From a virus, in the IMG/VR virus record IMGVR_UViG_3300044733_003647, positions 32,001 through 96,000 of that record: a stretch of 64,000 nt of DNA; one strand, written 5' to 3'. A program made the position numbers and the translations under genes. The notes beneath the pieces are model-generated. The model saw nothing but the letters and a program-made list of their open reading frames with translations. It was not told the DNA's origin and did not search any database. Shown here piece by piece: positions 1,612 through 32,667 of this stretch. Position 1 is the stretch's first letter, and the number at the start of each line of letters is the position of its first letter.

Positions 1612-3156
1612 TTATACGACCCTTGTATTGTCCATAATTAGTCGCATAAACGTTGAATCCACATTTCTAACAGCAATCGTATTCAAATCTGCTATTTTTT
1701 GTGGCATCTGTCGTTGTTGAGCATTGTTGACATTATTGACAACAGTTGGACCACTACTGGTTCTAGTTATTGGCAAATTGACATTCAGATTCTGACTAAC
1801 TGCATCATTTAATCTAGAGGTCAAACCCGTTCCAGGAACCGATGCAGGCATTGCTGGTGCTGTTTGTGCTGGTGAAGCTGTCACACCAGGAGTTGTAGAT
1901 GCTCCAGTCATGCGATTAAATTGACCCATTCGACCTGGCTGAGCCGCCGCAGATGCTGATGCTGGTGCTGCTGATGCTGGTGCTGCTGATGCTGGTGCTA
2001 CTGGAGCGGGAGCAGTTTGTTTACTTGCAGGAGGTTCAACACCCGTCTTTCTGGTGCCATCATCATTATAATATGGAGCATAAACTCTGTTCCATTCTTC
2101 TTCATTTCTTTTTGCTGCAAGACCTGTTCCAATAAATTGTTTTTTGGTGAAGGCAAGTTTATCTGCCGATCCTGGCATAACCGCTGGCGCTGCGGGAACT
2201 TCATAAACTTTTGTGTCCGCTTCAATTTCTTTGACTTTACTCTCACCACCCAAGTTCAAAATCGTTAGTTTTTTAGCTGCTTTTTCCTCTTCGGTGTTTT
2301 CTGGCATGGCTAGTGCTTCTACAGCACGTTGTCTGCCATTCCTTACAATATCTTCCAAATATTCGCGGCCACCAAGAGCATCTATGTCTCTGGGACTTCC
2401 TTTCAAAGCATTTTCTGCTTCAGATGGGCTCAACGCCTTCATATTGGGTGTATTTTTGGCCAATCTATCCAGACCAACTGACAACAAAGCAATAAGCCCA
2501 ACAAGACTAGCCACACCCAATAACGCAAGACCAAGTGGGCTAGCAAACCACTTTAACACATTCATTAATCTTGAAGCTAAAGATGCACTACCAAGCAAAT
2601 CCAACAGTGAAGGACGTTTCTCTTCTTCAGTAACTTTTGATGCAGTTCCCAAACTTAAAGAACTGAGAACCTTTAATAGTTCTTTGTGTCTCTTTTCTGC
2701 TTCCAATTTCTTTTCTTCAGCAAAGTTTAACTCTGCATCACTTCTTTTTAGGTCTGCTTGTCTAGTAACTTGCATCAGATAATATATTTTTCTGAGCATT
2801 TCGTTGACGCCTTCACCCATTCCTGTTCTGGGTTCTTTGCCTATTCTAGATGCAGTTCCTCTATCACGAATTGGTCGCATACGACCAGAGAAATATTGAA
2901 TGTCTCTATCGGAGCGGCCAGTGATTTTACCAAGTAGAGCTGGACCTAAACTTGATCCACCAGTCAAAAATTTTGCAATATTTAATGGATCAAATTTCTC
3001 TTTGAAACCTTTTACTCTGGCTTGAGCTTTTAGTGATATTGTCTTTTTAAGTGCGCCGCGAATTGTTGGTGAATCAGCTAACTGATCCGACAAAAGATCG
3101 GCAAAACTTGTACCGCGTACTCTACTTGCTTTTTGGTAATCTAAATTAGTAGCCAT
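1612..3156 (-). CDS. Tape-measure/baseplate-hub-like protein (paralog 2)
   Basis: 514 aa with a helical N-half, a hydrophobic segment (PLGLALLGVASLVGLIALLSVGL), an Ala/Pro-rich linker and a C-terminal TVVNNVNN motif. It lies downstream of gp26/gp51, where tape-measure-like genes are expected. Confidence 0.5.
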   Translation of the reverse strand: MATNLDYQKASRVRGTSFADLLSDQLADSPTIRGALKKTISLKAQARVKGFKEKFDPLNIAKFLTGGSSLGPALLGKITGRSDRDIQYFSGRMRPIRDRGTASRIGKEPRTGMGEGVNEMLRKIYYLMQVTRQADLKRSDAELNFAEEKKLEAEKRHKELLKVLSSLSLGTASKVTEEEKRPSLLDLLGSASLASRLMNVLKWFASPLGLALLGVASLVGLIALLSVGLDRLAKNTPNMKALSPSEAENALKGSPRDIDALGGREYLEDIVRNGRQRAVEALAMPENTEEEKAAKKLTILNLGGESKVKEIEADTKVYEVPAAPAVMPGSADKLAFTKKQFIGTGLAAKRNEEEWNRVYAPYYNDDGTRKTGVEPPASKQTAPAPVAPASAAPASAAPASASAAAQPGRMGQFNRMTGASTTPGVTASPAQTAPAMPASVPGTGLTSRLNDAVSQNLNVNLPITRTSSGPTVVNNVNNAQQRQMPQKIADLNTIAVRNVDSTFMRLIMDNTRVV

Positions 3157-5564
3157 TATGCTCTACTCTTTCTTGAGTATGGTGAACTGTCATCGACAAC
3201 ATCTCTATTTTGTTGTTGTGTTGCGTTTCCAGCCACGGTGTTTTGTTGGTTTATGACGACTGTTTGTGCAGGATTTTGGCTTGCTACATCAGTACGTCTT
3301 AAATTTGGAGTTGTATCAAGATTTAAAGGTGGACTTAGTGTAGATACAGATTCTTGCATTCTTTGTGGAGTGATGTTTAATTCTTCTATTTGTTCTTTTA
3401 TATAAATTTGTTTTGCTATTAGAAATTGTGAGACAGTCTGTGTAGCCAATTCTTTATTGGCAGTCATACCTTGCGTTGGATCAATTTTAATTCGTCTTAA
3501 GTAAGCTTCTCTTACCGTTACATTAGGATTTTTTTGCGCTTCATCCATAATGGCTAAAAATCCTCTAGCACCCAAGTAATTCGCTTGCAACATCATTGCT
3601 GCGGTTATTGGCCCCGTATAACCTATTTTTGGCAATCCCGCTTGCAACGATTTATATATTCCGTTAGAATTTATTTCAGAAAATTTTTTCTGATTATCTA
3701 GTGAAAATTTATCAGTCCATTTAAATCCAGATTCAAACCATAAACCAGCCGGATAAGTTTTTCCGTTAAATGTTGAAGTTCCATCCAAATTATATCCAAA
3801 AATTGTAGCAGGCATAAATCCTGCTATACCGACAGCACCATATGGTCCCTTTTTTCCTTCTTTTTTTGAAATCATTGTTGTTCTATATTTCACGTATTGA
3901 AGAAGTTCAGCAAAAGTGAAATCTGTTAAATCTTTTCTTTTTCCCAAATTATTTTCAGACCATTCTTGGGGCCTATCACCATGTTCGTTTAATATTCTTC
4001 CTGTTCTTTCCATCACATATTTTCCATTTTTAGCAACAATTGGTTTGCCGTCTTTTCCAAGTTTTGGTCTTCTTTCATAATAATCACCATAAACTGCGTT
4101 TTCATTTCCTTCATGTTTTGAAATTATTGCTCTCAAATCTTCCGATGTAATTGCTAAACCACCACCAATAGAAAATAAACGACCACCACTTGGTGCTCCT
4201 GTACCAGGTCTAGGTACTGGTGTAGCAGTTTGACCTGGTCTCGCAGGCGGCGGCGCTGGTTGAGCTGTCGCCGGTTGATCAGGTTTTCTCTCAACTCTCT
4301 CAGCACTTTTTCTGGCAGATTCTTCTCTAGCTCTTCTATCAGCTTCCCTTTTCGCCGCCTCACCAGCTGCTCTTACACCCTTTTCTTCTTCAGTGGTTCT
4401 ATCATTTCTTCTTTTATCTGCTTCTTTTCTAGCCAACTCTTCTCTGGCTTTTCTAGCAGTTTCTTCTCTGGCTTTCCTATCAGCTTCTCTTTTTGCAGAT
4501 TCGTTAGCCGCTCTTACACCTTTTTCTTCTTCGGTGGTTCTATCATTTCTTCTTTTATCTGCTTCTCTGGCTATTCTAGCAGCTTCAGCAGCTTCTCTGG
4601 CTTTTCTAGCGGATTCTTCAGCTTCTCTGGCTCTTTTAGCAGCTTCAGCAGCTTCTCTGGCTTTTCTAGCGGATTCTTCAGCTTCTCTGGCTCTTTTAGC
4701 AGCTTCTTCCGCATCTTTAGCTCTCTTGGCAGCTTCAGCTGCCTCTCTGGCTCTTCTAGCAGCTTCTTCCGCATCTTTAGCTTTCTTGGCAGCTTCAGCT
4801 GCCTCTCTGGCTTCTCTGGCTATTCTAGCAGCTTCAGCAGCTTCTCTGGCTTTTTTAGCGGTTTCTTCTTGAGCTCTTCTAGCAGTTTCTTCTTGAGCTT
4901 TTCTAACAGCCTCCTCTCTGGCTTTTCTCTCAACTTCTTCTTTAGCCTTATTTTCAGCTTCTCTTTCTGCTTTTCTGAAAGCCTCTTTTCTAGCAGTTTC
5001 TTTTGCAGTCTCAGCTGCCTGTCTTCTTGCTGTTTCTTCTGCTGCCCTTCTCGCGGCTTGTTGTCTAGCAATTTCACCAGCACTTGGTCCACTTGGTGCA
5101 CCAGGGCTTGGAACTGGTGCCGGAGTTCCTGGTTTTGGACCACTTGGTGCACCAGGGCTTGGAACTGGTGCCGTAGCGCCTGGTTTTGGACCACTTGGTA
5201 CACTAGGTTTGGCTGGAACAGGAACTGGTTTGCGACCAGGTAAAGTTGGTAATCTAAACGGCTTTTTTGCTTTAGCTTTCTTTGGTGCAGGCTTTCTACG
5301 AACAGTCAGTGCCTTAACTATTTCAGCATGTCGTCTAGCTTGTTCAATGTCTTGCTCTTCAGCGTAATTTTTTCTTTTCTCATAATCAAGTCTGTTCAAA
5401 TTTTCTTTTTGAACCATCAATTTGTATATACCGCCAAGAACTTCAGAATCGGATGCGTTTTTACCAAGTAGTTCCGAATCTTTATTACTGCCGCGCAAAA
5501 GACTCAATAGACCACCCATCAAACTTTTGGTGGTCTTTTTTGTTGAATCGTTTATATCTGCCAT
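3156..5564 (-). CDS. Tape-measure-like protein with Pro-rich and charged helical repeats and a putative lysozyme-like domain
   Basis: 802 aa with PSGPKPG repeats and a long E/A/R/K helix. The C-terminal region (LRAIISKHEG...YG...GAVGIAGFMPAT...NQ) resembles lysozyme-like muramidase folds. TAATG-coupled to both neighbours. Confidence 0.5.
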   Translation of the reverse strand: MADINDSTKKTTKSLMGGLLSLLRGSNKDSELLGKNASDSEVLGGIYKLMVQKENLNRLDYEKRKNYAEEQDIEQARRHAEIVKALTVRRKPAPKKAKAKKPFRLPTLPGRKPVPVPAKPSVPSGPKPGATAPVPSPGAPSGPKPGTPAPVPSPGAPSGPSAGEIARQQAARRAAEETARRQAAETAKETARKEAFRKAEREAENKAKEEVERKAREEAVRKAQEETARRAQEETAKKAREAAEAARIAREAREAAEAAKKAKDAEEAARRAREAAEAAKRAKDAEEAAKRAREAEESARKAREAAEAAKRAREAEESARKAREAAEAARIAREADKRRNDRTTEEEKGVRAANESAKREADRKAREETARKAREELARKEADKRRNDRTTEEEKGVRAAGEAAKREADRRAREESARKSAERVERKPDQPATAQPAPPPARPGQTATPVPRPGTGAPSGGRLFSIGGGLAITSEDLRAIISKHEGNENAVYGDYYERRPKLGKDGKPIVAKNGKYVMERTGRILNEHGDRPQEWSENNLGKRKDLTDFTFAELLQYVKYRTTMISKKEGKKGPYGAVGIAGFMPATIFGYNLDGTSTFNGKTYPAGLWFESGFKWTDKFSLDNQKKFSEINSNGIYKSLQAGLPKIGYTGPITAAMMLQANYLGARGFLAIMDEAQKNPNVTVREAYLRRIKIDPTQGMTANKELATQTVSQFLIAKQIYIKEQIEELNITPQRMQESVSTLSPPLNLDTTPNLRRTDVASQNPAQTVVINQQNTVAGNATQQQNRDVVDDSSPYSRKSRA
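4340..5200 (-). repeat. Coding tandem repeats: 60-nt period helix repeats (about 4561-4860), duplicated READKRRNDRTTEEEKGVRAA, 51-nt Pro-rich repeats (about 5080-5200)
   Basis: Lines 4561, 4621 and 4681 repeat gcttctctggct..tctagcagcttc with a 60-nt period; ccacttggtgcaccagggcttggaactggtgcc recurs. Confidence 0.9.
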
Positions 5565-5758
5565 TATTGTCTACTTCGTTCTTTTAGTTTTAGGTTTTCT
5601 TCTTCAAGATACTGTATTAATAATGTGATGTAGATATCCCTTTCCCAAGGTATCATACTCTCAAGCTCAGACAAACTATATTTGTGGTGTTGCATCAATG
5701 AGAAGTTTGTCTTGTAATAGTTCTTTAAATCATCATAACAAATTATAAGCCGAAAAAA
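5564..5758 (-). CDS. gp51: gp51-like baseplate hub assembly protein; first ATG at 5695, but the frame is open to the slippery site in gp26
   Basis: Manual translation (absent from the ORF track): RLIICYDDLKNYYKTNFSLMQHHKYSLSELESMIPWERDIYITLLIQYLEEENLKLKERSRQ*. The NYY.TNF.LMQHHKYSL.E.E.MIPWER.IY motif is typical of gp51-like proteins of aquatic T4-like phages. Confidence 0.8.
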   Translation of the reverse strand, partial: FFRLIICYDDLKNYYKTNFSLMQHHKYSLSELESMIPWERDIYITLLIQYLEEENLKLKERSRQ

Positions 5759-6474
5759 CTTTCGAGGCCCTCCACCTCTAAGCTGTGGTCAAAACCACAC
5801 TTTGAGCATGTTATTGCAATTTTCTTCTTCAATTTTGGAATATTGTTGAAGAAGTGTTCGACCCTATCAAATTGTTCTTGACTCATACTTTCAACGAATT
5901 CAAGCAACTCTTCTTTTGTTGTTTCTTTTGCATAATGAAACTGTTCACCATCATAGATGTGTTCAATCGAACTTGCGATCATATTAAATGTAACATCGGT
6001 GATATTGTCCATATCAATAGAATCTTTGATCAACCCAAATTGTGGATATTTCATCTTCACAACGATCTTATCATTGATTGCAATTTCTGGATCAACCACT
6101 TCCTCGGATTCTGGATATATCTCAGTCAAATTGATTTTCGACTCCATGATATTACCACATTCTTTCGTGTCAGTAACTTTATTGTTGCAACGATACTTTG
6201 ATTCCGAAATTTCACCAACAGACTTTGCTCTGAGGTTGATGAAATAATATTCAACATCAATAATTGGAAGTTCATCCAAATCAACACCTTCAGTCATTGT
6301 ACAAACATTCAGAATCTCTCTGATGTTGTGTTGAATAGTGTCCGCATCACCAGATTCCATTGCCATCAGAAGATTCTTTTGCTCTTTGACTAGGAATGGT
6401 CTGTATTTTATTTTCTTTTTTGAAAGTGGCAATTCAATTTCATATGTTGGCACTTCAAGTCTTGGTAAAGCCAT
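5743..6474 (-). CDS. gp26: Baseplate hub assembly protein gp26
   Basis: MALPRL..PTYE.ELP..K.IKYRPFLVKEQK.LLMA.E, LRAKSVGE, CxxC and a C-terminal EGLESFF. Confidence 0.9.
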   Translation of the reverse strand: MALPRLEVPTYEIELPLSKKKIKYRPFLVKEQKNLLMAMESGDADTIQHNIREILNVCTMTEGVDLDELPIIDVEYYFINLRAKSVGEISESKYRCNNKVTDTKECGNIMESKINLTEIYPESEEVVDPEIAINDKIVVKMKYPQFGLIKDSIDMDNITDVTFNMIASSIEHIYDGEQFHYAKETTKEELLEFVESMSQEQFDRVEHFFNNIPKLKKKIAITCSKCGFDHSLEVEGLESFFGL

Positions 6475-6491
6475 AGTAACTCCTTATAAAT

Positions 6492-7028
6492 TCAAACGAT
6501 AGTTTCCCATCTAGTATATGCAAATGTTGCATTCAGTTTATGATATCCATCAGAACTCCAGTCCAAGTCCATCTGATTGATTGAAATTGGATACGATTCA
6601 ATAAATCTCACTTCATGTGTAACTTTATCTGTAACATCATATTGTTTAACGGTGATATCGGTACAATATGTGTTTCTATAATTAAAGTTGTTGGTGGAAG
6701 AAGGATTGATAAGTTGCATCCATGCATCAAACAACTTCTTTTGTTTCATGTCGCTATCGACAATTAACGTTACATCAAGATCGTTGTATGTTGTAAGATA
6801 TGGAAACTTTTCAATTGGTCCATAGGTTCTCTGTTCGGTTGTTGCTAAAGTTCTTCCTGGTATCTGTGCATTCTCACATCTGAATGTCAATATTGCTTCA
6901 GAACTACCATAAATATCTACTTCTAGAGATGGAGGAAAATTGGGCAGAGGAAAAAATACCTGAAATCTATTAGGTCTAGCAAAATCGCTCCTAAAAGATG
7001 CGACTATTCTGTCAATTGATAATGACAT
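6492..7028 (-). CDS. gp54: Tail tube initiator gp54 (gp19 fold)
   Basis: ARPNRFQV, CENAQIPGR, WMQLI, YPISI..MDLDW and C-terminal FAYTRW. Confidence 0.75.
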   Translation of the reverse strand: MSLSIDRIVASFRSDFARPNRFQVFFPLPNFPPSLEVDIYGSSEAILTFRCENAQIPGRTLATTEQRTYGPIEKFPYLTTYNDLDVTLIVDSDMKQKKLFDAWMQLINPSSTNNFNYRNTYCTDITVKQYDVTDKVTHEVRFIESYPISINQMDLDWSSDGYHKLNATFAYTRWETIV

Positions 7029-7649
7029 TTATGAATTCCTTATTTCTTCGATAGAATCTTGCCAAACTGATTTGGCGGCTTGTTTTTTAAACTGGTGTAC
7101 TGGTAAATATGTGGCAACGTCCCACTCATCAGGTTGAACCGCCAGGATTCTGGATCTGACATGTGAGTACAAGTACTGTTTCACGCACGGCCTGAACTCC
7201 CTCAGTCGCCTGGTTGCGTCCAGTATGTCATAGGTTATGCGGATGCGTTTAATCTCATCATTCTCATCATAGATGGCTCTACCCATCAACTTACGCATGA
7301 ACAGGATTCGGTAATTAACCGGTAAATAATGCAGATTTAAACCTAAAAACCCGTCAGATTGCCTTTGGAGTGGCATCACCAGTGGAAATCTATCATAATA
7401 TGGCAATTCAACTTTGGTTTTGGGATCATATATGAAGAAATACAAGCCACCAAGTAAAAACTTCTGTCTATTTGATGGTGGTGTGTATCTAAACTTTTCC
7501 CTCGTCATTGGTGGGATGTATGCAGTTGGATTTCTGAGCTGCAACATCTTTTGTCTTAACCATGCAAAAGACTGGCGACTCATGTTCTGAACGCCAGCCG
7601 CAGATTTTTCTTCTGCTATTGTAGTGAGTATTGAAGGTTTTGTAGCCAT
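7029..7649 (-). CDS. gp2: DNA end protector protein gp2
   Basis: YDPKTK.ELPYYDRFPLV, FLGLNLHYLP and PCVKQYL..HVRS. Start reassigned to ATG 7649 (MATKPS), which follows a CTAAATA box. Confidence 0.9.
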   Translation of the reverse strand: MATKPSILTTIAEEKSAAGVQNMSRQSFAWLRQKMLQLRNPTAYIPPMTREKFRYTPPSNRQKFLLGGLYFFIYDPKTKVELPYYDRFPLVMPLQRQSDGFLGLNLHYLPVNYRILFMRKLMGRAIYDENDEIKRIRITYDILDATRRLREFRPCVKQYLYSHVRSRILAVQPDEWDVATYLPVHQFKKQAAKSVWQDSIEEIRNS

Positions 7650-7660
7650 GTAATATTTAG

Positions 7661-8107
7661 TTAGAGTCCAAGGTGTTCTTCGGTGATGATTTTGAACTCC
7701 CAACCACGGTCCAAACAGTATTCGGTCGCGGCTTTCCATTTTGCCTGATTGACACCCCAAGTTGCAACTTCATTGATATACTGTTTCGTTACTCTTTTCT
7801 TGACTTCTGGCGCGTGTGTTTGTTTCTTTGGTTTGACTTCCAACATCATCGTTTTTTGTTTTCCGTCTTTTGTTCGCACCTTGACTAGAAAATCTGGAAA
7901 ATATCTGTGCCACTTTCCATCAACCGGCGATATATAAGGAACAATCATTTCCTCAGAAGCCCATGATATTATATCTGGATTTTTGTCGAGCCAGTTCATC
8001 ACCCTACATTCCCAAGATGAACGATAAACAATATTTGTGTGATCACCCACATATTTCCGTGGATTTCTGGGTCTAAACAGACCCTTGTAAGATGATTTGT
8101 ATGTCAT
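7661..8107 (-). CDS. gp4: Head completion nuclease gp4
   Basis: YKG.F.P.NP.KY.GD...IVYRSSWE, WASEE..VPY.SP.D...HRYFPDF, EVKPKKQT and NQAKW.AA. Start taken at ATG 8107. Confidence 0.93.
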   Translation of the reverse strand: MTYKSSYKGLFRPRNPRKYVGDHTNIVYRSSWECRVMNWLDKNPDIISWASEEMIVPYISPVDGKWHRYFPDFLVKVRTKDGKQKTMMLEVKPKKQTHAPEVKKRVTKQYINEVATWGVNQAKWKAATEYCLDRGWEFKIITEEHLGL

Positions 8108-8114
8108 ATAAATA
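8107..8114 (+). promoter_or_regulatory. T4-type late promoter TATAAATA at the head of the plus-strand structural operon
   Basis: Exact T4 gp55 consensus about 40 nt upstream of the gp48 ATG, in the divergent intergenic region. Confidence 0.75.
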
Positions 8115-8153
8115 TTATGTATGCACTCTGCAAACAAGAAAATAAGGTATTAA

Positions 8154-29669: not shown

Positions 29670-32667
29670 TACAGTTACATCGTTAAGTTACGCAAACACA
29701 TTTGGTGAGTGGGTTGTTGCGACTAATAGTCTTATTAGAGAGAATAATGATCTTGCGGCAAATGATTATGTTAAAAGTACAGGTACAATTTACCTAAATG
29801 AAACTACACAAAACTCTCTTCAATCAAACGGAACTGTAATTATACAGAAAGAACTGCTTGTACAAGGTACAGGTTCATCTGCGACAGTACAAAATAATTT
29901 AAACGTTGGCAGTCAACTGTATCTAACAAATGGCGCACTAAGTTTAGTTGCATCAGGTCAAGCAAACGTTGCTGGTCAGATTAACGGGCAAGCTTCTGGT
30001 ATTGGTCTGTTTATTGCAAACAATGCACACATTGGTGGAACTACAGTTTCTGCTGTTAGACTGACAACAGGAGTTTTGCAGGCAAACTCTTCTGTTAATA
30101 CATCAAACGCATCGATTGTTAATACATTATTCACTAAAGATTTACAGGCAAATTCAACAGTTAATACAGCAACCGCTTCTGTAACTGGTACCACATTTAC
30201 CAATGTACTACAAGCCAACACATCAACAAACACAAGTAATGCTTCGATTGTTGGAACGACATACACCGGTATGTTACAAGCCAATACTTCTGCAACTGTT
30301 GGTACATTGCAAGCTAATACATCCACAAATACTGCAACTGCGTCCGTAACAGGCACAACATTTACTAATGTGTTGCAGGCAAATACGTCAACTAACACCG
30401 CGACAGCATCCGTAACTGGTACTACATTTACCAGTGTGTTGCAAGCCAATACATCGACAAATACTGCCACAGCATCTGTCACAGGCATCACATTTACTAA
30501 TGTATTACAAGCCAATACTTCTTCAAATACCAGAACAGCTTCCGTAACAGGAACAACATTCACTGGTTCATTACAGGCTAATACATCGACAAATACTGCC
30601 ACAGCATCTGTCACAGGCACAACATTTACGGACATTTTACAAGCGAATACGACCGCAATAGTTGGTACATTACAGGCCAACACAACTGTAATTGCACCAA
30701 CATCATCCGTATCTGGTACAACATTCACCAATGTTTTACAGGCCAATTCGACCGTCAACACAGCAACAGTATCTGTAACTGGTACAGTAATTACAAATGA
30801 AGTTGCAGCAAACACATCTGTAAATTCTCCATTAGTTGTTGCGAATAATATTACATCAAACAACACAATTACTGCAAATAATATTTTTCTTTCTAATGTA
30901 TTGAATGGAAATACAAGCACTGCTTATTTTAATAGTATACTTGTTCAAGGTGGTGGTCTAACAATTAATGGAAATTTTGTTTTAACTGGAACAACAGTTT
31001 ATACAGCAAATACATTCTTACTTTCCGCCAACGTATCAACCGCAGTATCCAGTTTCTACAATGTTGACAGAGGTTCAACTGGCGTCGATGCTGCATTTCG
31101 TTGGAATGAACCTGCCAAATATTGGGACACATTGAATGTCACTTCAAACACATATTATCGTGTATTGACTGATGAATATTTCAACGATACATTAACATCG
31201 ACTAGCACAACATCTGTTGCAACTGCAAACGCAGTTAACGCATTAAATACACTTTATAATACATCAAATACGTTCTTGCAAGCTGGTGTTATTTCTGCTG
31301 GTTTGTATGCAAACGGAGCATTCTTAAGAGCTAATGCTGCATATAATTCTCAAAATACAACTGGCACATACGCAAATAATGCATATGCACAGGCAAATAC
31401 AGCAACTAATAACGCAGCTGGTGCATCACTTTATGCCAATGGTGCTTTCATACAAGCCAATGCAGCGTTTTTGGTAGCAAATACAGCAACTAATAACGCA
31501 GCTGGTGCATCACTTTATGCCAATGGTTCTTTCATACAAGCTAATGCTGCGTTCTTGAGAGCCAATACACCAGATGCTATAGCGAATTCGGCTGCACTAT
31601 ATGCAAATGGTGCTTTTACACAAGCAAACACTGCGACCACTAATGCAGCCACAGCCGACAGTAAAGCAGTAACAGCTGGTTCTTATGCTAACTCCGCATA
31701 CGGACAAGCAAACACTGCTACAACCAATGCAGCAATAGCAGACTCCAAAGCTGTTACGGCTGGTTCTTATGCAAACTCAGCATATGGTCAGGCTAATACC
31801 GCAACTAATAATGCCGCAGGTGCTTCTCTATACGCCAATGGTGCTTTTAGACAAGCTAATGCTGGTTACGCTCAAGCGAACACTGCAACAACCAATGCTG
31901 CAACAGCAGACTCTAAAGCTGTCACTGCCGGATCATATGCAAACTCCGCATTCACTCAAGCCAATTCGGCTTTCTCAACAGCAAGTAGTGCATTGAATGC
32001 AAGTAATCTTTCCAGTGGTACTGTTCCTCTCGCTAGACTGAGTGGCATCACAACCACACAATTGAGTGCTAGTGCTGGTATTACGAATACACAGTTGTCA
32101 AGTAGCACAATTTCTGGTGTTTCCTTGGGTGGAACTTTATCTTCACACTCAGCGGGAACATATTTGGTTGGTGATGTTTACAATGGCAGCACATCAAGAA
32201 CATGGTCTGTTGATGCCACGACAACAGGTACCGCAAATAAAATTGCTGCAAGAGATGGTTCGGGTGACATATACGCAACAGTGTTCAGAGGTCTTGCAAC
32301 TAGTGCCAACTACGCTGACTTGGCAGAAAAGTATTTGGCTGATCAAGAATATGAAGTTGGAACAGTTGTTGCTGTTGGTGGCGAAGCAGAAGTTACCGCT
32401 GGTTCATATGGAGATAGAGCAATCGGAGTAGTATCTGCTCATCCTGCTTATATGATGAACAGTGAACTGGAAGGTGGAACTTATATTGCACTTAAAGGTA
32501 GGGTTCCAGTGAAAGTATCTGGCACTGTGCGTAAAGGACAACGTTTGGTTGCATATAACAACGGTACGGCTGTTGCAGCAGTGCCACATGCAAATGACGT
32601 TTTCGCAATCGCACTAGAATCGAGTGATGATACTGGAGTAAAACTAATTGAAGCAGTGATTTTATAA
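29662..32667 (+). CDS. Long tail fibre-like protein with a putative C-terminal autocleaving chaperone domain
   Basis: 1001 aa with 22-aa LQANT repeats and ANxAY helical repeats. C-terminal YADLAEKY...GVVS..PAY.MN...ALKGRVPVKV resembles peptidase G2/intramolecular-chaperone domains. Confidence 0.7.
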   Translation: MANTVTSLSYANTFGEWVVATNSLIRENNDLAANDYVKSTGTIYLNETTQNSLQSNGTVIIQKELLVQGTGSSATVQNNLNVGSQLYLTNGALSLVASGQANVAGQINGQASGIGLFIANNAHIGGTTVSAVRLTTGVLQANSSVNTSNASIVNTLFTKDLQANSTVNTATASVTGTTFTNVLQANTSTNTSNASIVGTTYTGMLQANTSATVGTLQANTSTNTATASVTGTTFTNVLQANTSTNTATASVTGTTFTSVLQANTSTNTATASVTGITFTNVLQANTSSNTRTASVTGTTFTGSLQANTSTNTATASVTGTTFTDILQANTTAIVGTLQANTTVIAPTSSVSGTTFTNVLQANSTVNTATVSVTGTVITNEVAANTSVNSPLVVANNITSNNTITANNIFLSNVLNGNTSTAYFNSILVQGGGLTINGNFVLTGTTVYTANTFLLSANVSTAVSSFYNVDRGSTGVDAAFRWNEPAKYWDTLNVTSNTYYRVLTDEYFNDTLTSTSTTSVATANAVNALNTLYNTSNTFLQAGVISAGLYANGAFLRANAAYNSQNTTGTYANNAYAQANTATNNAAGASLYANGAFIQANAAFLVANTATNNAAGASLYANGSFIQANAAFLRANTPDAIANSAALYANGAFTQANTATTNAATADSKAVTAGSYANSAYGQANTATTNAAIADSKAVTAGSYANSAYGQANTATNNAAGASLYANGAFRQANAGYAQANTATTNAATADSKAVTAGSYANSAFTQANSAFSTASSALNASNLSSGTVPLARLSGITTTQLSASAGITNTQLSSSTISGVSLGGTLSSHSAGTYLVGDVYNGSTSRTWSVDATTTGTANKIAARDGSGDIYATVFRGLATSANYADLAEKYLADQEYEVGTVVAVGGEAEVTAGSYGDRAIGVVSAHPAYMMNSELEGGTYIALKGRVPVKVSGTVRKGQRLVAYNNGTAVAAVPHANDVFAIALESSDDTGVKLIEAVIL
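30075..30800 (+). repeat. About 10 degenerate 22-aa repeats (LQANTSTNTATASVTGTTFTNV)
   Basis: Directly visible in the translation and as a 66-nt period in the DNA. Confidence 0.9.

Follow-up and report, generated by a model that had tools for sequence, protein, structure and literature searches.

The data point to genes 26 and 51 of an uncultured T4-like phage being a single gene, read in two forms through a programmed -1 frameshift of the type known from lambda G/GT. The gene lies on the minus strand of a 64,000-nucleotide (nt) stretch of viral DNA, positions 32,001 to 96,000 of IMG/VR record IMGVR_UViG_3300044733_003647, which we refer to as the window and whose coordinates are used throughout. 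An original prediction, made from the letters of this stretch, had proposed that a slippery sequence near the end of gp26 fuses it to gp51, upstream of a gene resembling that of a tape measure protein. The frameshift of tail assembly chaperone genes is described as conserved in long-tailed phages "except T4" (Atkins et al., 2016, PMC5009743). From comparisons of sequences across relatives, we put the probability that gp26 and gp51 are one recoded gene at about 0.8.

A Candidate Slippery Site Joins the gp26 and gp51 Reading Frames

On the minus strand, gp26 ends ...GGC CTC GAA AGT TTT TTC GGC TTA TAA, with the zero-frame codons AGT (5760-5758), TTT (5757-5755) and TTC (5754-5752) at the site and the stop TAA at 5745-5743. 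Direct reading confirmed the in-phase X_XXY_YYZ heptamer T TTT TTC of the original prediction at 5758-5752, two codons before the gp26 stop. Read in the -1 frame from 5758, the sequence is FFRLIICYDDLKNYYKTNFSLMQHH..., which is free of stops for 64 codons up to the TAA at 5566-5564, and this stop shares bases with the ATG (5564-5562) of the downstream open reading frame (ORF) of 802 amino acids (aa) as TAATG. The claim that a -1 slip would enter the gp51 frame, open as far as this overlap, was thus correct in its coordinates, frames and gene names. The predicted fusion comprises 241 + 62 = 303 aa, with the junction ...GLESFF-RLIICYDDLK.... The first canonical starts in the gp51 frame, TTG (5698-5696) and ATG (5695-5693), lie 18-19 codons past the slip site, and no purine-rich Shine-Dalgarno (SD) sequence was found before either when the window sequence was inspected.

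The zero-frame protein (P0001) matched PF12322 (T4_baseplate) with E 2.4e-58 and 197.8 bits (cut-off 24.5) over profile positions 2-218 of 219, and phrog_150 ("baseplate hub") with E 8e-61. The -1 peptide matched phrog_634 (gp51, "baseplate hub assembly catalyst") with E 6e-28, and also matched the C-terminal end of the gp26 PHROG, positions 231-276 of 282. Since TTTTTTY occurs 75 times in the window (35% GC) against 95 expected, the heptamer alone carries no weight, and the case rests on its context. What is beyond chance is the position, phase and conservation of the heptamer taken together with the -1 ORF.

Frame and Heptamer Are Conserved in Distant Single-Gene Relatives

The single-gene relatives examined comprised 71 distinct junctions and five more phages, with the deep sampling provided by 22 annotated GenBank/RefSeq records; single-protein scans of IMG/VR seeded by distant gp26 returned only close relatives. 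At all 80 of the 80 close IMG/VR loci, where gp26 is 67-100% identical to that of the window, TTTTTTC had the phase seen in the window and gp51 followed in the -1 frame; the zero-frame stop varied in both type (TAA, TAG, TGA) and position (1-2 codons past the site). Thirteen distant single-gene records from widely differing families were also compared, namely those of Synechococcus phages S-SKS1 and syn9, Kyanoviridae phage C48C1, Pelagibacter phage HTVC008M, Sinorhizobium phage phiM7, Stenotrophomonas phage DLP_6, Aeromonas phages phiAS5 and TSW001, Vibrio phages D527 and 1.081.O (Schizotequatrovirus), Vibrio phage D528, Rhizobium phage RHph_I34 and Dickeya phage RC-2014. A gp51-like ORF was present in the -1 frame in 13/13 of these, and an in-phase T_TTT_TTC, T_TTT_TTT or (once) T_TTT_TTG in 10/13. 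The -1 relation was also seen in HTVC008M-, phiAS5- and Ackermannviridae-like loci, and the frame of gp51 relative to gp26, on whose constancy the original prediction depended, was -1 in all single-gene relatives examined.

The heptamer was present at 52 of the 71 distinct junctions (TTTTTTC at 46, TTTTTTT at 5 and TTTTTTG at 1), with the tetramer T_TTC alone at the other 19. T_TTT_TTN was in phase in about a dozen deep lineages, among them the window clade, S-SKS1, syn9, C48C1, HTVC008M, phiM7, DLP_6, the phiAS5 clade and RHph_I34, as well as in two Schizotequatrovirus-like Vibrio phages. The T run, which is T6 in the window, extends to T7-T8 in phiM7, HTVC008M and C48C1.

Codon Choice at the FF Motif Favors Slippery Codons Where gp51 Is Not Separate

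In 140 of 146 representatives (clusters at 50% identity), gp26 ended 0-3 residues past FF/FL. The FF was preceded by D, S or N in 135 of 141 such representatives; E, K and Q, none of which has a codon ending in T, never occurred there. Formation of the heptamer requires two synonymous choices, NNT before FF and TTT over TTC for the first Phe. Given the codon usage of each gene elsewhere in gp26, the joint probability of both choices in 11 deep lineages was ∼10^-7.4, a rough value in which the lineages are treated as independent. The GC-rich phages DLP_6 and phiM7 use TTT for 0/11 and 2/13 of their other Phe codons, respectively, and despite this usage the site reads AAT TTT TTY in each of them.

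Phages in which gp51 is encoded separately provide a natural control. At the equivalent position T4 has GAG TTC TTT, Acinetobacter phage 3014 GAA TTT GTT, Klebsiella phage KaAlpha GAA TTC TTC, a Tegunavirus GAA TTT GTC and Erwinia phage COW86c GAA TTC TTC, and the slippery site was missing from gene 26 in 5/5 of these T4-type phages. With regard to synonymous disruption of the heptamer, which the original prediction had named as evidence that would count against it, the heptamer was kept in single-gene lineages, and its loss was confined to phages that encode gp51 as a full-length gene of its own, except that the Ackermannviridae-like clade has only T_TTC. In T4-type gene 26, the -1 frame overlaps gene 25 (T4 gene 26 3' end at L081:3803-3830, and loci L127, L128, L129 and L130).

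The gp51 Frame Appears to Be Coding Upstream of Its First ATG

Among 38 distinct sequences of the window clade, the 18 gp51-frame codons that precede the first ATG had 8, 5 and 16 variable columns at codon positions 1, 2 and 3, respectively. The same third-position bias was seen in the rest of gp51 (17/9/38) and upstream in gp26 (11/7/18), and the peak of variation moved to the corresponding codon position when the other two frames were read. Judged by this pattern, the 18 codons evolve like coding sequence, consistent with the conserved-looking gp51 segment that the original prediction had placed upstream of the ATG at 5695, for which it saw no obvious SD. The Met of this ATG is Ile (ATH) in three relatives (L016, L057 and L070), in which the first ATG then falls at codon 32. 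A late first ATG, 13-32 codons into the frame, was found in the window clade, HTVC008M, the phiAS5 clade, syn9, C48C1 and Kuttervirus-like phages.

The Predicted Long Form Is Colinear with T4 gp51

The T4 genes 26 and 51, which encode proteins of 208 and 249 aa, respectively, are transcribed divergently, and both products match PF12322. Whereas gp26 consists of the domain alone, gp51 consists of the domain (residues 1-201) and a tail of ∼48 aa that matches phrog_634. When the proteins were aligned with MAFFT, the T4 gp26 end, ...GLKEFFELL, paralleled the window zero-frame end, ...GLESFFGL, and T4 gp51, ...SLNSISKMIPAER, matched the predicted window fusion, ...ESFF-RLIICYDDLKNYYKTNF...SLSELESMIPWER, column for column. 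The short form of the window would thus end like T4 gp26, and the predicted long form would be colinear with T4 gp51, with which it has the tail motif Y-S-L...M-I-P-x-E-R in common.

A profile was built from five T4-type gp51 proteins, and the predicted fusion matched it as one ungapped domain across the junction with 43.2 bits and E 1.7e-14 (profile positions 15-244 of 250, fusion residues 23-286 of 303), compared with 18.7 bits for the zero-frame protein and 20.8 bits for the -1 peptide when each was taken alone. The gp51 part aligned to profile positions 200-244. T4-type gp51 is a gp26 paralogue bearing the same C-terminal tail as the predicted fusion. The genome from which the window comes (156,657 bases, with completeness estimated at 94%) contains a single PF12322 gene, so a long form would be obtainable only by recoding, in contrast to T4, which has two paralogous genes and no slippery site. 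Both states are found within the Straboviridae, with one gene in phiAS5 and Schizotequatrovirus and two in Tevenvirinae and Twarogvirinae.

Among 5.8 billion clusters, the gp51 tail was found inside longer proteins in three metagenome gene calls (P0274, P0275 and P0276). One gene call of 300 aa reads ...GLGSFFRISMAHENL... in a single frame, which is the exact predicted junction, and may be either a real fused variant or the result of a homopolymer miscount. PF28602 is listed for these rare long proteins and may represent the gp51 tail as a newly added family.

The N-Terminal Domain of gp26 Resembles Tail Assembly Chaperones

T4 gp26 and gp51 are considered hub assembly chaperones, and gp51 is needed for assembly of the hub and absent from the virion (Leiman et al., 2010, PMC3004832, Table 2). 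The AlphaFold2 model of the window gp26, made with 145 diverse homologues, had a predicted local distance difference test (pLDDT) score of 95.8. When residues 1-90 were compared with 48,161 chains using VIA-align, the top three were 3KLU (Z 7.5), 3FGX (Z 7.4) and 2OB9 (Z 6.8), all below the Z of 8 under which this tool has a grey zone that unmatched models can reach. Each superposition covered 85-86 residues with a root-mean-square deviation of 3.7-4.0 Å and a sequence identity of 6-9%; the next rows were Vibrio PLE ORF19 (Z 5.4) and then, at Z 3.9, the next unrelated chain. All three top matches are tail assembly chaperones, namely B. subtilis YqbN (3KLU), Rbstp2171 (3FGX) and HK97 gp13 (2OB9) (PMC9603447). 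They stand clear of the rest and cover the whole domain, and these best matches suggest that the gp26 N-terminal domain has the tail-assembly-chaperone fold. The solved chaperones differ in being single-domain proteins of ∼100 aa, whereas gp26 is longer and has an extra domain, a beta domain with four nearly invariant Cys (C95/C106 and C223/C226).

A Foldseek search of the gp26 model against the Protein Data Bank (PDB) gave nothing significant, with no E below 0.9 and the chaperones as weak local matches at E about 2. A profile search of PDB sequences with gp26 found no chaperone and no solved relative, and no homology to Pfam Phage_TAC families or to the gpG sequence was found in gp26, PF12322 being its sole Pfam match. 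When the natural 300-aa in-frame homologue was modelled (pLDDT 93.6), its extension folded into three helices, and a helix spans the junction. In a BFVD search, folds like that of gp26 were found outside the T4 superfamily in large myoviruses, including Bacillus phages SP-15 and BCD7, Campylobacter phage CP220, Ralstonia phage phiRSL1, Pseudomonas phage PaBG and Achromobacter phage Motura, and some of these proteins are 380-670 aa long.

A Proposed Mechanism and Its Relation to Lambda G/GT and dnaX

At X_XXY_YYZ sites of this kind, two tRNA-Phe on UUU-UUC can re-pair perfectly on UUU-UUU after a -1 move. In the mechanism we propose, most ribosomes would end at the gp26 stop and yield the 243-aa short form, and a fraction would slip -1 on U_UUU_UUC, with tRNA-Phe re-pairing from UUU to UUU in the P site and from UUC to UUU in the A site. 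The slipped ribosomes would read 62 further codons to give a 303-aa long form, which would carry a helical tail on the gp26 body and would be expected as a low, fixed fraction of the product. Both forms would act as chaperones of tape-measure or hub assembly and, as T4 gp51 is absent from the virion, would probably not be retained in it. By analogy with lambda, the tape-measure or hub protein may be bound by the body that both forms share, and another tail component may be recruited by the tail of the long form (PMC5009743). T4 and its close relatives would reach the same result with two paralogous genes, 26 for the short form and 51 for the long form. The anatomy of the sequence, its conservation, the coding signature, the colinearity with T4 gp51 and the resemblance in fold are what the data show; that the slip is ribosomal, how efficient it would be, and that the products act as chaperones is what we infer.

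The comparison with lambda G/GT is close in organization. In both systems a pair of overlapping ORFs separates the tube gene from the gene in the tape-measure position, the latter of the two ORFs is read in the -1 frame, and the zero-frame stop follows the heptamer within a few codons. An N-terminal body with what appears to be a chaperone fold is common to the short and long forms. Lambda G/GT is not known to require a downstream structure, and none is predicted in the window. Unlike gpG, to which it has no sequence similarity, gp26 is about twice as long with its extra four-Cys beta domain, and the heptamer is U_UUU_UUC in the window compared with G_GGA_AAG in lambda. The conserved -1 frameshift of tail chaperone genes, including lambda gpG/gpGT, was reportedly the subject of work by Levin et al. 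in 1993 and by Xu, Hendrix and Duda in 2004, 2013 and 2014, which the review by Atkins et al. summarizes. The suggestion in the original prediction that gp26 and gp26-51 are the G/GT equivalents is supported, with the architecture of T4 gp51 and the fold of gp26 as added evidence.

The E. coli dnaX -1 frameshift uses A_AAA_AAG with an SD-like element 10 nt upstream and a hairpin, and the window is similar in that GGAGG ends 10 nt 5' of the heptamer. An SD-like core 8-10 nt 5' of the heptamer was found in 32/47 distinct contexts. The window differs from dnaX in being without a downstream hairpin, and its GGAGG, for which an RNA role is putative, is encoded by conserved Glu-Gly codons. Since GGAGG coincides with codons for a conserved Glu/Arg-Gly and also occurs in T4 gp26, we treat it as a lead only. 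Stable hairpins 3-8 nt past the heptamer were found in some other lineages (the L060-L080 group, S-SKS1, D527, phiAS5 and phiM7; z -2.5 to -3.9, with mononucleotide shuffles as reference). Because hairpins are confined to those lineages, stimulators seem to be lineage-specific and no conserved one can be claimed.

Evidence Against a Frameshift and Alternative Explanations

Several observations weigh against the recoded-gene reading. The whole analysis is computational, and TTTTTTY is common in this AT-rich genome. No downstream RNA structure was predicted in the window (z +0.35 for 5670-5751, and z +1.1 for a 70-nt fold), and an Rfam scan of 5450-5900 gave no frameshift element and only a chance snoRNA row at E 0.59; because there is neither a stimulatory structure nor an Rfam element, the efficiency of frameshifting may be low. 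The fold comparison stayed within the grey zone described above, and the 802-aa protein, whole or cut into parts, had no Pfam or PHROG match. In the Ackermannviridae-like clade the site reads GAR ATT TTC ATY TAA, with only T_TTC in phase and no canonical heptamer. Finally, in six lineages (S-SKS1, phiM7, DLP_6, D527, RHph_I34 and Limestonevirus) there is an ATG 2-3 codons past the site, often as TAATG or TGATG, and in these a free small gp51 could also arise by coupling.

The weak-site phages merit separate treatment. TSW001 and D528 have CTT TTC at the site, likewise with only an in-phase T_TTC, and in the tetramer-only clade T_TTC sits inside a T4-T5 run. The tetramer-only group (L105-L124, L086, L131 and L132) consists of Ackermannviridae and two unclassified Aeromonas/Vibrio phages. 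All of them retain the -1 relation of gp51 to gp26, and in the Kuttervirus-like members the first ATG is 13 codons in. The tetramer may be a non-canonical shift site that acts in the A site only. Since an in-phase T_TTC alone is a weaker site, the frameshift claim is weaker for this clade, which may work differently.

One alternative is that gp51 is an independent small gene of 40-60 aa, the form in which GenBank and RefSeq list it, and that it is expressed through initiation of its own or through reinitiation coupled to termination of gp26, with no fusion. The 13/13 single-gene (non-T4-type) records that we opened without finding a joined coding sequence (CDS) are in keeping with this idea, as are the six lineages in which an ATG overlaps or abuts the gp26 stop. 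We nevertheless consider an independent gp51 unlikely, because the first ATG is late in several lineages, and in the window it has no SD and is replaced by Ile in three relatives. The codons before it are coding-like and align to internal residues of T4 gp51, and an independent gene would explain neither why the heptamer is kept against codon usage nor why it is lost in T4-type phages. The same fused reading could also be obtained by transcriptional slippage, in which the polymerase would add one U on the T6 run and produce an mRNA subpopulation with gp26 and gp51 in frame. The T run, T6 in the window and T7-T8 in some phages, is a suitable substrate, one inserted U would have the same effect as a -1 ribosomal shift, and the rare in-frame gene calls could reflect variation in run length. 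Efficient polymerase slippage, however, is known from runs of ∼8-9 or more, for which T6 is short, and the run is always in X_XXY_YYZ phase, a property that makes a difference to ribosomes but none to polymerase. Within the T4-T5 run of the Ackermannviridae-like clade only the in-phase T_TTC is kept, and ribosomal sites typically have a zero-frame stop as near downstream as the 0-3 codons seen here. This explanation seems to us as improbable as an independent gp51.

It is still harder to credit that the site is a product of chance or artefact, with the FF motif yielding a T run and the split between gp26 and gp51 caused by homopolymer sequencing error or ordinary gene overlap. TTTTTTY is indeed not over-represented in the window, and FF is a conserved protein motif that also occurs in T4 gp26. 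The comparative data contradict this reading. Over 100 independent assemblies, as well as finished genomes of isolates from several families, have the same split, the place of the zero-frame stop is conserved, synonymous choices at the site are non-random, and in T4-type genes F-F or F-V is encoded by codons that are not slippery. A ribosomal frameshift joining gp26 and gp51 remains the reading that we favor.

The Neighborhood of gp26 and the 802-aa Protein

The gene order in the window is head closure (gp4-like), DNA end protector (gp2-like), tail-tube family, gp26, gp51, 802-aa protein and 514-aa protein (Table 1). The order of tube, gp26, gp51 and long protein recurs in HTVC008M, phiM7, phiAS5 and D527, and resembles the lambda V-G-T-H order of tube, chaperone, shifted chaperone and long protein, with the tube gene at the place of lambda V. 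The gp4-like head closure protein (7661-8137, minus strand) matched Pfam Tn7_TnsA-like_N with E 1e-25. The TTG start listed for the gp2-like ORF (7029-7760, minus strand) is probably called too far upstream, since it results in an overlap of 100 nt with the gp4-like ORF.

The original prediction had described the downstream genes as tape-measure-like, and for the 802-aa protein this is suggested by position, size, repeats and composition, but not by any family match. BLASTP comparison of this protein with the tape measure of HTVC008M and with the "lysozyme" protein of DLP_6 gave nothing significant. The syntenic long protein of HTVC008M matches tape-measure PHROGs with E 8e-12, and T4 gp29 is Pfam T4_Tape_measure. 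Tandem repeats in the 802-aa gene include units of 30, 60 and 90 nt repeated ∼8, 5 and 3 times, a 141-nt unit repeated 1.8 times, and a Pro-rich 51-nt unit repeated 2.4 times; the Ala/Glu/Arg/Lys-rich repeats are helical. An Atlas search with the C-terminal part gave weak SLT/tail-lysozyme leads (0.83), so that this part is possibly lytic-transglycosylase-like. With these weak transglycosylase leads added to its position, size, repeats and composition, the 802-aa protein may be tape-measure-like, a suggestion on weaker ground than the frameshift itself.

Table 1. Features at and around the proposed gp26-gp51 recoding site (window coordinates)
Feature	Position	Strand	Basis or remark
Tail-tube-family gene directly 5' of gp26	6492..7028	-	Pfam PF23849 Phage_TTP_2, E 5e-8; phrog_45 tail tube, E 2e-41
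gp26 Shine-Dalgarno AAGGAG	6480..6485	-	5 nt 5' of ATG 6474-6472, read from sequence
gp26 zero-frame ORF, short form, 243 aa	5743..6474	-	PF12322, phrog_150; chaperone-like N-terminal domain and four-Cys beta domain
SD-like GGAGG, candidate dnaX-type upstream stimulator	5769..5773	-	Ends 10 nt 5' of heptamer
Slippery heptamer T_TTT_TTC, proposed -1 shift site	5752..5758	-	X_XXY_YYZ phase, read from sequence
gp26 zero-frame stop TAA	5743..5745	-	Two codons 3' of heptamer
gp51 part, 62 post-slip codons in -1 frame ("T-like" extension)	5567..5752	-	phrog_634 match
First TTG and ATG of gp51 frame	5693..5698	-	Start if gp51 is annotated as a separate small gene
-1 frame stop TAA, overlapping ATG of next gene as TAATG	5564..5566	-	Read from sequence
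802-aa protein in tape-measure position	3156..5564	-	No Pfam/PHROG match; long Ala/Glu/Arg/Lys-rich repeat region

Implications for the T4 Superfamily

The mechanism proposed here is of a known kind, and what is new for the tail-chaperone frameshift is the protein family and the phage group. A full-text literature search found no report of a gp26/gp51 frameshift, with subscription papers outside its reach. Among the 1,274 phage records with a gp26 homologue, the non-T4-type ones, a large share of which are cyanophages, annotate "gp51" as an ORF of 34-60 aa with an arbitrary start. A joined gp26-gp51 CDS was annotated in 0/13 of the single-gene GenBank/RefSeq records, in agreement with the remark in the original prediction that such a fusion is not the usual annotation.

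With somewhat better than even odds, we suggest that gp26/gp51 is the missing tail assembly chaperone system of the whole T4 superfamily. Ancestrally, a single gene would have used a G/GT-type frameshift, which Kyanoviridae, pelagimyophages, Schizotequatrovirus, Chrysonvirus and rhizobiophages would have retained, and Ackermannviridae-like phages in weakened form, and the T4-type lineages sampled (Tevenvirinae and Twarogvirinae) would have resolved it by duplication. If this is true, the small "gp51" ORFs in genomes of non-T4-type phages are mis-annotated fragments of a recoded gene. The tail-chaperone frameshift is among the most conserved viral recoding events, with T4 as its named exception (PMC5009743); our data suggest that the T4 superfamily is no exception, since the frameshift appears to be in use in the majority of its members, with T4 itself encoding both products separately. 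The parts played by T4 gp26 and gp51 in hub assembly have been unclear for decades (PMC3004832), and the frameshift would give these proteins a testable role, with the production of the same protein pair, either by recoding of one gene or from two genes, offering a natural comparison.

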